A stretch of DNA of 64,000 bases from a virus (Duplodnaviria > Heunggongvirae > Uroviricota > Caudoviricetes), in IMG/VR virus record IMGVR_UViG_3300049460_000121, positions 1 to 64,000 of that record, one strand, 5' to 3'. The notes below the pieces were generated by a model. The model searched no databases, was not told the DNA's origin, and was given only the letters and a program-made list of their open reading frames with translations. Shown here one piece after another: positions 2,684 through 37,063 of this stretch; the stretch's first letter is position 1; every line of letters begins with the position of its first letter. A program made the position numbers and the translations under genes.

Positions 2684-4962
<2,279 letters not shown>

Positions 4963-32616: not shown

Positions 32617-32640
32617 GTAATGTATTGCTCAAGAATGTTA
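32617..32640 (-). promoter_or_regulatory. Putative early promoter (AATACATTAC) overlapping an 11-bp inverted repeat
   Basis: Recurrent motif; TACATTACCGT/ACGGTAATGTA. Confidence 0.5.
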
Positions 32641-33684
32641 CTCGGCCGATCCCTTCGGAACGGACACATGCTCGACGATCGAGATGATACCGCCGATTAC
32701 AACGTCGTAACTCTTATCCAGAGCACCGGCGTCGAAACCTTTGACAGATCCCGCGAATGGGAAGTGGTTCAACATCGGACCCCATTCAGCATCCTCGTCT
32801 GGGAAGTGGTGGGCCCACCATTTGACCTCGTCAGTATCGTCGAGAGTCCAGTAGTCTTCGTACGGACTGTCGCGCTCAAACAGTTCACGACCCAAGGTCA
32901 TCAGCTGCGTAATCTGAGATTGCGTGGGATACTCACACATGACGCGGAAACCGAGAGCGGGCCCAAACGGATGACCGTGCGTCTCACCATATTGGTTGTC
33001 GTTGTACGAGAAGTCAGCCAATGGGAAGTTAGGCTTCTCAGGAGCGCGGGCACCGAGCTTACGCATCTCGGCATCGGCGTAGGCTTTGGCTTCTGCCGGC
33101 TTCATGGATTCGCAACGCTTATAGATGCGCTCACAATCCTTGGTGTACTTGTTGACCGCAGCGATATACTTGGCAGACGACTTGACGTACAGGTCTACCT
33201 GATGGATGAGACCAGGCCAGAACGTCGACTGAGCTGATTTCAGTCGCAGCGCAGCAGCCAGGGCTGTGAAGTCACTGGTACCAGTCTTGACCACCCGAGG
33301 CTCTTTACCTGGATACAGGAGATCGTAGTCGACCTTCTTCGCAGCAGGGGCGGCAGACTTGTGTTGTGCTGCCTTACCACCGACTACCGAGGAGTAGAAC
33401 GCTTTGAACTTCTCGGTCAGGGATTCAAACGACGGGTGGACTTGTTGGTCAACGATCAACGGGATGTAATCCGGGTTGTACCAGACATCACGGGATTCCA
33501 TCGAGTGACCACCTGCACGGTCTGGAAGTTTATCAGCCCAGTGCTTATCCTTGGCGATGTGTTCTTCATCCTCGTCCAGGATACCGCGTGCAACGTCCTG
33601 ACTCATCTTGCGCGATTTGGCAAAATCGCTATCCGCTACGACCTTAATAAGGAACGCGCGCTGGGCCTTACTCTTCGATGCCAT
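32638..33684 (-). CDS. Probable virion head protein
   Basis: SME and SFE maturation-type motifs; start MASKSKAQ. Confidence 0.6.
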   Translation of the reverse strand: MASKSKAQRAFLIKVVADSDFAKSRKMSQDVARGILDEDEEHIAKDKHWADKLPDRAGGHSMESRDVWYNPDYIPLIVDQQVHPSFESLTEKFKAFYSSVVGGKAAQHKSAAPAAKKVDYDLLYPGKEPRVVKTGTSDFTALAAALRLKSAQSTFWPGLIHQVDLYVKSSAKYIAAVNKYTKDCERIYKRCESMKPAEAKAYADAEMRKLGARAPEKPNFPLADFSYNDNQYGETHGHPFGPALGFRVMCEYPTQSQITQLMTLGRELFERDSPYEDYWTLDDTDEVKWWAHHFPDEDAEWGPMLNHFPFAGSVKGFDAGALDKSYDVVIGGIISIVEHVSVPKGSAE

Positions 33685-33740
33685 GTCATATCGCCTTGAC
33701 TGTTCTATTATCTCCCTGCTAGAGGGTCCATAGAATCTCA

Positions 33741-33789
33741 CAGCACAAAAAAAGAAACAGATACCACGGAGCTTGCGCTCCGTGGTATC
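33741..33789 (-). terminator. Terminator
   Basis: 13-bp stem GATACCACGGAGC/GCTCCGTGGTATC, then T-tract and TTGTGCTG. Confidence 0.8.
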
Positions 33790-33806
33790 CACTCCCTTAC
33801 CAGCGG

Positions 33807-35003
33807 TTAATCCTGAGGCGTACGACTCTCATCGATGCAATGCATCACGTAGTCGGAGATCGATGACACGGCGTATTCGCGAGGCACCCCTGCGATGCCG
33901 TATTGGTTGCAGTACTCGCAGATGCCCCACCGACCGTCTTTGGTGATGAACAGATCCACCGACTGCATTGGACCAATAACTTCGTCCAGCAGTTGTTTGA
34001 AGACGTCCACTTCATTCTGCCCGCCCATCAGGCTGACTAGTGACGCCTCATCGATCCCGCAGATGTTTTCAAGCATCACGGTTGCACTGGTGGCTTGCTT
34101 GTAGACATCGCCGATGCGATTGCGGATGCAGGCAAAGCCGATGTCCCGTACGTGGTTGGTGAGTACGCGGATCTCGTACTGGATGTCATCCACGTAACGC
34201 TGGAAGGTGAAGTTACCCTCTTCCTTGACCTGCTGGGACTCTTGATCATCCCAAGCCTGGCCATGCGACAGATGGGCGTGAGGAGCGTACTTCTCAGCCA
34301 TCTCAGCGACCGTGGTCTTGCCGTAGAGGTCACGCAGGAACGGACCTACCGACACTTGGTCAAAGTCCACCACGAAGTGACACAGGCCACGAGCGCCGTC
34401 TTCTGGCTTGACCACGATCTTGCCAGTCAGTTCAGTACCCAGGTAGGACGGGTGGTAGTTGTCGCCCCAGTTACTGCCGTACGTTGGAACGATCAGCGCC
34501 TTGTCGGATTTGGCTTGACGCAGGAACTGGTTGATCGCAATGGCTTGACGCGTCTTGCTCAGACGCTTGGTCAGGAACAGACGGTCCTTAGGCACGATAC
34601 CGACCCACTTGTCATCGGCCGTGATGAGGATGTCGAAGTTGAAGCACGGCAGACCTTCTTGCATGACCCACTTCGGATCACTGTGCACGCTCACGTCGTA
34701 CCAGGCGCTCTGGAAGCGCGGTGGAATCATGTTGAACTGGTTGATCGAGTGAGGATCATCGATGCAGACCACGACATGGTTGCTGGACATGATAGGTCGA
34801 CTGTCGCCATCTTTTATGCCACTGAATTCAAAGCGTGGCATGGCATTCTTGATCGGTTCGGCTACTTCTGTCATTTCTGGTTCTTTCCAGATGAGTGGGT
34901 CAATGGGGGTGGTTGGTTCGACGCGGTTGATGTTTCGAGCGTCTACGGGATTCTCGACCGTCTCCCACTTGATCGGGACAAGGTCTACACGCAGTTCGGT
35001 CAT
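33807..35003 (-). CDS. ATP-grasp (RimK-like) ligase with N-terminal extension
   Basis: VVKPEDGARG, FQRYV...YEIRV, SVDLF, GICEYCN. Confidence 0.75.
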   Translation of the reverse strand: MTELRVDLVPIKWETVENPVDARNINRVEPTTPIDPLIWKEPEMTEVAEPIKNAMPRFEFSGIKDGDSRPIMSSNHVVVCIDDPHSINQFNMIPPRFQSAWYDVSVHSDPKWVMQEGLPCFNFDILITADDKWVGIVPKDRLFLTKRLSKTRQAIAINQFLRQAKSDKALIVPTYGSNWGDNYHPSYLGTELTGKIVVKPEDGARGLCHFVVDFDQVSVGPFLRDLYGKTTVAEMAEKYAPHAHLSHGQAWDDQESQQVKEEGNFTFQRYVDDIQYEIRVLTNHVRDIGFACIRNRIGDVYKQATSATVMLENICGIDEASLVSLMGGQNEVDVFKQLLDEVIGPMQSVDLFITKDGRWGICEYCNQYGIAGVPREYAVSSISDYVMHCIDESRTPQD

Positions 35004-35019: not shown

Positions 35020-35694
35020 TTATTCGTGAGTGGTGGAGAGCTCACTGATGATGCAGATCGACCCATCACCTTCAGGCGTGGTGTCGGAGTAATCGATCTG
35101 GTTATAGACACCACCGTGGAACTGCAAGACCTGGTCGAACCAGGAGCTGTCCAGCTTCAGCGGGATCTTTGTCGACAACAGCCCTTGACAAAGCACGTTC
35201 AACGAGATCGAACCGCTGGCAGTCACGCCGATGCTGATCTTGAACGGTACGCCCAAGGGGACGTAACTGTGGATGGTGGTGTTGACGATCTCCGGATCGG
35301 CGAAGCTGGCACGGAAACCAATGGTGATCTTGCCTTTGCTCCAGAACACCTTCAACGGCGGGGTAGTGGCATCCTTGACGTGGATCTGTGCGATAACCAC
35401 TTTCTGTGCCGAGTTGACTTTGGTAACAGTCATCTCTTGTCGACTCCAGTGTTTAGTAGCACTGCCAATCGCCCAGTACTCAGGTTCCTTCCATTCGGTA
35501 CGAGTGCGCTTGGTACTCTTACTCGACGCACCCTTAGTAGGGGCGGTGAACTGGACCGCCCCGTCTTCCAGTTGCTCGACAACCCCAGGACATTCCACCA
35601 GGGCTAGCGATCCCATGAGCTCCAAGGCTACTGGGTTTGTTTCAGACACAGGGAGTGGTGTTGCGATGATGTAGTTGCTGATATCGACAAACAT
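35020..35694 (-). CDS. Polysaccharide lyase family 7 (alginate lyase)
   Basis: F.AP..G, RTEWKE, IAQIH, FHGGVYNQ; no signal peptide. Confidence 0.88.
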   Translation of the reverse strand: MFVDISNYIIATPLPVSETNPVALELMGSLALVECPGVVEQLEDGAVQFTAPTKGASSKSTKRTRTEWKEPEYWAIGSATKHWSRQEMTVTKVNSAQKVVIAQIHVKDATTPPLKVFWSKGKITIGFRASFADPEIVNTTIHSYVPLGVPFKISIGVTASGSISLNVLCQGLLSTKIPLKLDSSWFDQVLQFHGGVYNQIDYSDTTPEGDGSICIISELSTTHE

Positions 35695-35752
35695 GAGAGG
35701 ACCTTCAAGTAGGATATGCGACATAAGTAGGGGATCGCTCCCCTACCGATGA

Positions 35753-36181
35753 TTACCAAGCAATGGATTTCAGTACACGCTTCTCGTACTGGAGGTATTG
35801 CTCATCACCCTTACGGTAGACTTTACCCGTTTGGATGAATCCCGCAGCCTTGAACGACTTTCGACTTGGAGTGTTCGCGGGATCGATATACGCCCGACCG
35901 TTGCGACTCGCGAAGAAAGATTTGATGAACGTTGTCGCAATACCTTTACCGCGTTGAGCAGGATCCACGTAGATCGGACCCACCCGGTAGAAACCACTTT
36001 CCAGGCGAGGCATCGCAAAACCGATCAACTCGCTACCGTCCATGATAAGAATCATCTGGTCGGTCTTACGAGCGTACACGATGTCGCCTAGAAACCGGTC
36101 GTGACTTGCATCGGCCAGCATCTTCTTCAACGCTGGGGTGTCGTGGGTGTACTTCTCGTAGGTAATAATTTCAGACTCCAA
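35753..36181 (-). CDS. GNAT acetyltransferase
   Basis: IYVDPAQRGKGIAT motif A; N..S...F...GF motif B. Confidence 0.88.
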   Translation of the reverse strand: MESEIITYEKYTHDTPALKKMLADASHDRFLGDIVYARKTDQMILIMDGSELIGFAMPRLESGFYRVGPIYVDPAQRGKGIATTFIKSFFASRNGRAYIDPANTPSRKSFKAAGFIQTGKVYRKGDEQYLQYEKRVLKSIAW

Positions 36182-36954
36182 TCATAGACGTTGACCTGGA
36201 TACCGGAATTAGCGAAGACCTCATTGAGGATAGGGCGGACATCGGTCTCGTAATCCAACTGACCGGTTTCTTTGCCACACCCTACGCGTGGTAGATGGAC
36301 CTCAGTAATTCCATGAGCATCCAGGTAGTTTCGTAAACGGACGGCACTGCGATGTATTAATCGAGTGCAGGAAGCATTACGCCATTGATGCTTGGTGGGG
36401 AATAGTGCAACCCGAAAGGCTTCCTCTTGCACCACTTCCATATCGCCGGTGTTGATCTTCCCACTCTTGCACAGCCGCATGTACCGTCCAAGTGCTGTCT
36501 TGTACATGGTCCGCATGTATAGGGCAAGTCCTCTGCCATGGACACCGACCGTGTTGACTGGAATTGCTATGACAGACCCTTTGGGAGCAAGTTGTAACAT
36601 ACTCCCAGTTATGTCATTGATCACGGCACTCCTCCCTCTACAATCCAAACACACTGCCTGAGTCCTGACGCCATGTATCTCGGCTTCAAGGGGACCCTCA
36701 CAGGATGGGCATTCGGATGGAAGTGGTGGGGAAACTCTGTCGTCCATGTCGTTTGTCTCTACGAGGCTTTTAATAGCCCACGTCATTTCATCAAACTCAA
36801 CGACGTCACGTTCATCCAGTGCCAATTGCTGGTAACGGTAAGTGTTGAGGTAAATTGTGTGGTATGCACCGCCTGTTGCCATCAGCGTTACGACTGCGCG
36901 AAGGATGCCAGACGCGGTGACGTTGAAACGAATATTCTGTACCGTACCCTGCAT
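36127..36954 (-). CDS. LigA-like OB-fold/Zn-finger fused to a DarG/TARG1-like macrodomain
   Basis: Macro motifs PVNTVGVHGRGLA, FPTK..W, LPRVGCG; N-terminus aligns by eye with the ligase OB/Zn region. Confidence 0.8.
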   Translation of the reverse strand: MQGTVQNIRFNVTASGILRAVVTLMATGGAYHTIYLNTYRYQQLALDERDVVEFDEMTWAIKSLVETNDMDDRVSPPLPSECPSCEGPLEAEIHGVRTQAVCLDCRGRSAVINDITGSMLQLAPKGSVIAIPVNTVGVHGRGLALYMRTMYKTALGRYMRLCKSGKINTGDMEVVQEEAFRVALFPTKHQWRNASCTRLIHRSAVRLRNYLDAHGITEVHLPRVGCGKETGQLDYETDVRPILNEVFANSGIQVNVYDWSLKLLPTRSTPTTPQR

Positions 36955-37063
36955 GATTGGCTCGATTTCGTGCTAAGTTCATATCCTCCCGACGAGCTGT
37001 AACGAAATATATGAATCAACCTCCTCATATGGGGGTTCAATCCACAACCCGAGTGACCAAGCG

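Follow-up and report, generated by a model that had tools for sequence, protein, structure and literature searches.

A ligase-type OB/zinc block fused to a DarG2-type macrodomain in a divergent chimallivirus

About half of the chimalliviruses encode a DarG2-like macrodomain, AdfM (anti-DarT factor macro; gp104 of PhiKZ), which is imported into the phage nucleus by PicA and strips DarT2-installed ADP-ribose off DNA in vitro (Morgan et al., Cell Rep 2026, PMC13309987). The same study showed that the N23A exchange lowers this activity, that AdfM rescues DarT2 toxicity and that PhiKZ needs it to resist DarTG2, and it names K78 as an active-site residue (PMC13309987). Here we describe a gene, at positions 36127 to 36954 on the minus strand of a 64,000-nucleotide stretch of DNA (the window; positions 1 to 64,000 of virus record IMGVR_UViG_3300049460_000121), in which a macrodomain of this kind is joined to an N-terminal module (N-module) homologous to the OB fold and C4 zinc ribbon of the NAD+-dependent DNA ligase LigA.

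The new element is this ligase-derived OB/Zn block; the enzymatic half belongs to the characterised AdfM family and is hence less new. This half adds one more member to an anti-defence family that is already known, because AdfM has been shown to defeat DarTG2. The initial annotation of the window knew of no described protein with this architecture, and we likewise found no description of an OB/Zn-macrodomain fusion in the literature, among annotated phages or in a profile search of 1.84 billion representative proteins. The words OB-fold, zinc and ligase are absent from the report on AdfM (PMC13309987), and a comparative study of jumbo phages described macrodomains and a stand-alone DNA-binding domain of ATP-dependent ligases, not an OB/Zn-macrodomain fusion (PMC7824862). 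A further group of phage-borne enzymes, AdfN, comprises the orphan NADAR antitoxin-like enzymes of T4-like phages (PMC11825919).

An OB/zinc block of the LigA type

The coding sequence (36127..36954, minus strand) lies exactly where the initial annotation had placed it; it extends from an ATG start to a TGA stop codon and specifies a two-domain protein of 275 residues (P0001). In the secondary structure predicted by AlphaFold2 (AF2), residues 1-70 (36745..36954, minus) form an OB fold that superposes on the OB domains of LigA. They are followed by a C4 zinc ribbon at residues 78-108 (36631..36723, minus; LPSECPSC ... CLDC) with the conserved cysteines C82, C85, C102 and C105, which aligns with the zinc finger lying within residues 320-439 of Escherichia coli LigA (2owo). 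A flexible linker, residues 107-117 (36604..36636, minus), leads to the macrodomain at residues 118-259 (36178..36603, minus). No fixed packing between the domains is predicted because the linker is modelled at low confidence, with a predicted local distance difference test score (pLDDT) below 50, and the predicted template modelling score (pTM) of the full-length AF2 model is 0.51.

The N-module, residues 1 to about 108, is a true homologue of the OB plus C4-zinc block of LigA. The initial annotation had proposed an OB/Zn fold for this region, and it is indeed the fold obtained when the module is modelled alone (pLDDT 84, about 88-92 in the OB part; pTM 0.74), with the topology b1-b2-b3-helix-b4-b5 and then a beta-hairpin, residues 88-102, between two CxxC knuckles. 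In Foldseek comparisons with the PDB the best seven matches were all LigA structures (TM-score 0.62-0.70, about 110 columns), and VIA-align superposed the module on E. coli LigA 320-439 with Z=10.7 and 110 residues aligned, as against Z values of 6.9 or less, over residues 1-67 only, for generic OB folds. Viral NAD+ ligases were also the top matches in BFVD, and the ten nearest cluster sets listed for the ESM Atlas were all LigA families (TM-score 0.73-0.78).

Sequence profiles led to the same proteins. A profile built from the N-modules of 12 family members was searched exhaustively against the 1.84 billion representative proteins at E <=1e-3. Outside the family its only matches were a single multi-zinc-ribbon protein and six NAD+ ligases, in which the matched stretches coincide with PF03120 OB domains. 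Five of the six ligases are tandem double ligases and each of their scores is the sum of two stretches of about 20 bits, while the sole single-copy ligase, P0019, scored 34.8 bits in one stretch. When the family profile was aligned with this divergent ligase by hhalign the probability was 96.9% (E=2e-10, 95 columns). The only non-ligase match, P0014 (659 amino acids), has four or five zinc ribbons in tandem (Trm112p/DZR-like), and its match is confined to the zinc-ribbon portion of the profile. All 12 members keep C82, C85, C102 and C105, and several motifs are common to the module and LigA, namely F-N/Q, G16, N37, the G/D-D50 turn and LP-x-x-CP-x-C.

The phage encodes a real LigA as well (window 2684..4678, minus), with the full domain set of adenylation, OB, C4 zinc finger, HhH and BRCT domains by Pfam. 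Three N-terminal stretches of the fusion protein had initially been paired with this LigA. Their register agrees with hhalign, which aligned residues 37-89 with residues 367-421 of the phage LigA (E=4e-4), and with a hidden Markov model (HMM) alignment of N-module residues 5-92 with E. coli LigA 324-418, but the pairwise resemblance is weak. BLASTP matched the CxxC stretch only (E=0.34) and the HMM score of the module against the phage LigA was 4.7 bits. The pairwise match to the phage LigA is no better than chance, and the homology to ligase reaches significance only with profiles and structure.

These values exclude that the module arose by recent duplication of the LigA of this phage; it is much closer to the divergent ligase lineage of P0019, and for the grafted ligase module suggested earlier the phage LigA was not upheld as the source. 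No adenylation domain (KxDG lysine), HhH or BRCT domain was found by Pfam in the 275-residue fusion protein.

The nearest ligase relatives of the N-module are themselves unusual. P0013 and P0015-P0018, metagenomic proteins of 1328-1396 amino acids, are 'double LigA' proteins with two adenylation domains and two OB/Zn blocks each; in them the position equivalent to LigA R333 is degenerate and, besides P0019, they are the closest ligases to the module. P0019 itself derives from a 2.9-kb JGI (Joint Genome Institute) contig where, at L008:1731-2705 (plus strand), a small NAD+ ligase is apparently split into genes for 73 and 247 amino acids. The former is an adenylation fragment; the latter, P0019, carries the remaining adenylation part and the OB/Zn block, and among single-domain relatives it is the best match to the N-module.

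Eleven full-length relatives, counted as clusters at 90% identity, were found in metagenomic assemblies and they are 61-97% identical to the fusion protein. The start position, the two-part layout and the intact fusion are common to all 12 clusters. One relative, P0007, is found on dozens of contigs, the longest of 267 kb, and several of these come from wastewater-type samples. None of 50,697 annotated phage records carries, by tblastn, a protein covering at least 80% of the fusion protein, and those that match do so with the C-terminal half only; they are mostly jumbo phages of Pseudomonas, Erwinia, Vibrio and others. A megablast search of the locus against the annotated phages gave no match. 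The N-module occurs in a single small clade of uncultured phages, with 12 clusters that are 61% or more identical, and was not found in any annotated phage. In the distant subgroup it is less conserved than the macrodomain, at 51-55% as against 61-63% identity.

The macrodomain and its active site

The C-terminal domain, residues 118 to about 259, is a DarG2-type macrodomain. Pfam Macro (PF01661) matches residues 132-228 at 28.3 bits, above the cutoff of 22, and phrog_335 matches at 5e-19. The best PDB sequence matches are the DarG structures 5m3i of Mycobacterium tuberculosis (4.6e-10) and 5m31 of Thermus aquaticus (1.6e-8), followed by human TARG1, and Foldseek with the AF2 model also returned TARG1 and DarG (E about 1e-8, target TM-score about 0.71). 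Assignment to the DarG subtype is specific, with E-values of 3.9e-26 for PADLOC DarG and 1.5e-25 for NCBIfam antitoxin_DarG, and with about 90 bits for the DarG models as against 28 bits for the generic Macro model. The NCBIfam match covers profile positions 18-147 of 338, and its 90 bits compare with an equivalog cutoff of 250 bits. It is limited to the macrodomain part, and a C-terminal DarT-binding domain such as that of full-length DarG was not found with this model. To the AdfM-type macrodomain of PA7 (Phikzvirus) the domain is 32% identical (E=7e-16).

The motifs VNTVGVHGRGLA (with N134), FPTK (with K188) and LPRVGCG all occur in the protein and do not vary among the 12 family members, in line with the initial annotation of a DarG-type macrodomain with the FPTK lysine. 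N134 of VNTVG(V), codon 36553..36555 (minus), aligns with the catalytic Asn22 of T. aquaticus DarG and is the equivalent of N23 in PhiKZ AdfM. K188, codon 36391..36393 (minus), aligns with Lys80 of T. aquaticus DarG and is equivalent to K78 of PhiKZ AdfM, and its surroundings, FPTKHQWR, align with FPTKKHWR in DarG.

The protein ends in a Pro/Thr/Ser-rich, disordered tail, residues 260-275 (36130..36177, minus; pLDDT about 30). These 16 residues are present only in relatives that are at least 76% identical and are missing from the 61-63% subgroup.

Proposed function and alternatives

On balance we consider the gene to encode an AdfM-type anti-DarT2 enzyme with an added N-terminal module, most likely a DNA tether, a reading drawn from the sequence and its homologies. 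The macrodomain would hydrolyse ADP-ribose from thymine of phage DNA, where the mark would be set by the host DarT2 of DarTG2, and removal of thymine-linked ADP-ribose is the most likely predicted activity of the fusion protein. Hydrolysis would follow the chemistry of DarG and AdfM with N134 and K188, judging from homology to the tested enzymes, and the initial proposal of an anti-DarT role for the macrodomain fits the 2026 experiments on stand-alone AdfM (PMC13309987). The N-terminal 108 residues, a block derived from NAD+-dependent DNA ligase and linked flexibly to the macrodomain, would most likely hold the hydrolase on DNA, possibly at a distorted or interrupted duplex, and would thereby concentrate it locally on the genome that is being replicated in the phage nucleus.

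That the N-module most likely acts as a tether to DNA or to a DNA structure is suggested by the role of the block in LigA, by its rigid geometry and by a conserved hairpin. In LigA the OB/Zn block lies over the minor groove, across from the nick. The b1-b2 hairpin of the module, with the exposed residues R9, N11, T13, G16 and R19 conserved in the family, aligns with the DNA-contacting GRTG loop of LigA.

Several observations weigh against this role. The Pfam scan of the N-module gave sub-threshold zinc-ribbon matches only and did not reach DNA_ligase_OB (PF03120) or ZBD (PF03119). In HMM and MAFFT alignments with E. coli LigA, R333 is replaced by A14, R378/R379 by D55/E56 and V383/I384 by A60/I61, and R333 and R379 are reportedly essential DNA contacts in mutational work of the Shuman laboratory. 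Position 56 is, nevertheless, Arg in 5 of 12 relatives, and the R333 position is variable too in the divergent ligase copies nearest to the module. The second zinc knuckle is CxxC in the module as against Cx4-5C in ligases. The module is also acidic in every member (net charge -2 to -7, isoelectric point 4.6-5.9), with D47, E48, D50, D55, E66 and D72 invariant, while the macrodomain is mostly basic; this charge is not discriminating, however, because the OB/Zn segment of the phage LigA is itself slightly acidic (-2). Furthermore, DarT2 and DarG use DNA in single-stranded form, but it is duplex that the OB/Zn block of LigA binds. Finally, stand-alone AdfM is active without an OB/Zn module, which is therefore dispensable for the basic activity (PMC13309987).

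The OB/Zn block could also be a sensor of lesions or structures, recognising ADP-ribosyl-thymine in duplex, nicked or gapped DNA, or a second, non-enzymatic prong that binds DarT2. We regard this as rather doubtful. If the sensor version were true the eraser would handle substrates that are poorly served by the single-strand-acting DarG and AdfM; and with either version this would be the first time that a DNA-clamp element of a ligase has been exapted for an anti-defence enzyme, and AdfM would acquire a new substrate range. Binding to DarT2 in particular, with the acidic module mimicking nucleic acid and the protein acting as both eraser and direct inhibitor as in bacterial DarG2, seems very improbable. 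It would be consistent with the acidity of the module and the loss of the LigA contact arginines, and DarG2 is described, in the citation of Deep et al. 2023 in PMC13309987, as having, besides its macrodomain, a domain that mimics single-stranded DNA and so inhibits DarT. However, the NCBIfam DarG match ends within the macrodomain (18-147 of 338), and the module is not homologous to the C-terminal domain of DarG. We know of no OB/Zn block that serves as a DNA mimic. A complex predicted for the module with DarT of enteropathogenic E. coli (DART_ECO27), as a stand-in for the host protein, scored 0.02 against a mark of 0.32, which weighs neither way on binding.

It is also conceivable, but on the whole unlikely, that the macrodomain is an AdfM-type eraser and that the OB/Zn module has lost DNA binding and serves protein interaction or localisation, for example recognition for import by PicA or docking, whether on the phage LigA or on some protein of replication or repair. 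The replaced contact arginines and the several invariant acidic residues of the module would agree with such a loss, as would its faster divergence than that of the macrodomain in the distant subgroup, and nuclear entry of AdfM does require PicA (PMC13309987). Yet AdfM of PhiKZ, PhiPA3 and Asesino reaches the nucleus without an OB/Zn-type module (PMC13309987); moreover, OB fold and zinc ribbon retain the ligase geometry as a rigid block (TM-score about 0.7), the hairpin matching the LigA DNA-contact loop is conserved and the LigA OB/Zn segment is mildly acidic as well. A quite different substrate, such as protein- or RNA-linked ADP-ribose, ADP-ribosylated DNA ends, O-acetyl-ADP-ribose or ADP-ribose-1''-phosphate, is improbable. 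Macrodomains of the TARG1 and Poa1p types are also good structural matches, PHROG 335 is annotated as 'phosphatase', a GNAT acetyltransferase gene is a conserved neighbour (see below) and soluble ADP-ribose derivatives were proposed earlier for jumbo-phage macrodomains (PMC7824862). Against this stand the threefold higher score of the DarG models over the generic Macro model, the action on DNA of the nearest characterised relatives, DarG and AdfM, and the fusion to a module of a nucleic-acid enzyme, which favours a DNA substrate. Reversal of a modification made by the phage itself is unlikely, although the negative is a weak one: no match to DarT (PF14487) was found in the complete 267-kb genome at E <=1, and no ADP-ribosyltransferase, exotoxin ADP-ribosyltransferase or PARP families were detected there.

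Returning to the preferred reading of a DNA-tethered AdfM-type enzyme, its implications extend those of AdfM, which showed that the phage nucleus alone does not shield chimallivirus DNA from DarT2. The fusion variant suggests that in some lineages the eraser was improved when a ready-made module from an enzyme of DNA repair was added. Should the module direct the hydrolase to DNA or to particular structures in it, this would reveal the sites at which damage by DarT2 matters, be they replication forks, nicks or duplex before packaging, and would offer a natural design for DNA-tethered erasers of ADP-ribose. In the profile and structure searches this was the only non-ligase protein found with the LigA OB/Zn block, which bears on the modularity of the ligase element. 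The further idea of the initial annotation, that the protein might clean nicks for the NAD ligase, found nothing in its support. Overall, the observation made initially is confirmed and its interpretation is partly supported.

Genomic setting and comparison with known systems

The record from which the window derives is 267,467 bp long and rated 100% complete, and the fusion gene is its only macrodomain gene. The phage is a divergent chimallivirus because its genome encodes a 661-residue open reading frame (G000 92167-94150, minus) that matches chimallin (7sqt, E=3.8e-10) and PhuN of PhiPA3 (8fne, E=3.4e-7). This identification rests on the PDB matches; in tblastn searches of annotated phages the chimallin candidate matched only hypothetical proteins without names. 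The two genes upstream of the fusion gene, which are divergently transcribed, encode phiKZ-type internal head proteins (phiKZ_IP).

Six nucleotides after the stop codon of the fusion gene lies a gene for a GNAT acetyltransferase of 122 amino acids (35753..36121, minus; Pfam Acetyltransf_1, _10 and _7; PHROG acetyltransferase), whose true start is likely, from comparison with relatives, to be the ATG at 36121. The adjacency recurs in L004, L005 and L006 and is kept in relatives down to 62% identity. The two genes are probably co-transcribed, and the GNAT protein may be a second anti-defence or host-modifying enzyme of the same operon. No GNAT gene is present beside the AdfM gene of PA7.

About 45-60 nucleotides upstream of the start codon, a 19-nucleotide AT-rich element, TTCATATATTTCGTTACAG (36997..37015, minus), is nearly invariant in three loci although the proteins are only 62-77% identical. 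It occurs once in the 267-kb genome, so that recurrence as a genome-wide promoter motif was not seen, and a scan for sigma-70 promoters and terminators gave nothing above shuffled sequences. The element is possibly a gene-specific promoter or an operator or other regulatory site.

Further downstream an alginate lyase gene (window 35020-35724, minus; PF08787, E=5e-41) hints at an alginate-producing host, for example Pseudomonas or Azotobacter. It is followed by two large conserved genes for 398 (33807-35003, minus) and 384 (32638-33792, minus) amino acids, for which neither Pfam nor PHROG yielded a match at the thresholds applied.

Among described proteins AdfM is similar in being a DarG2-like macrodomain of a nucleus-forming jumbo phage, with the catalytic Asn and the FPTK Lys, and the genome's only macrodomain. 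It differs in standing alone, with 162 amino acids in PA7 and about 150 in FLC9, whereas the fusion protein has an extra OB/Zn module of 112 residues and its gene a GNAT neighbour that is conserved. Neither for the GNAT gene nor for the head-protein genes was synteny with the AdfM locus of PA7 found. The gene upstream of PA7 AdfM was considered as a split-off OB/Zn part and was ruled out (hhalign probability 0.1%).

Bacterial DarG2 (5m31, 5m3e and 5m3i, from T. aquaticus and M. tuberculosis) shares the macrodomain subtype and the active-site residues. Unlike it, the fusion protein lacks the C-terminal DarT-binding domain and an adjacent darT gene, and its accessory domain is N-terminal and ligase-derived. 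The N-module resembles the OB/Zn block of E. coli LigA (2owo) in fold, in the order of its domains and in their geometry relative to each other, but the adenylation, HhH and BRCT domains of the ligase are absent and R333 and R378/R379 are not kept.

Human TARG1/OARD1 (4j5s), which is mainly a hydrolase of protein-Glu/Asp-linked ADP-ribose, belongs to the same macrodomain subclass; its catalytic lysine is on the equivalent strand, and a PR-I/V-GCG loop is likewise shared. In the fusion family, however, the position of its catalytic Asp125, after GCG, is variable (K228 and E229 are not conserved) and the sequence similarity is weaker than that to DarG. AdfN has a NADAR fold, targets the guanine-linked ADP-ribose made by DarT1 and carries no fused DNA-enzyme module; as is proposed for the macrodomain described here, it represents the enzymatic half of a DarTG antitoxin carried by a phage to erase ADP-ribosylation of DNA.

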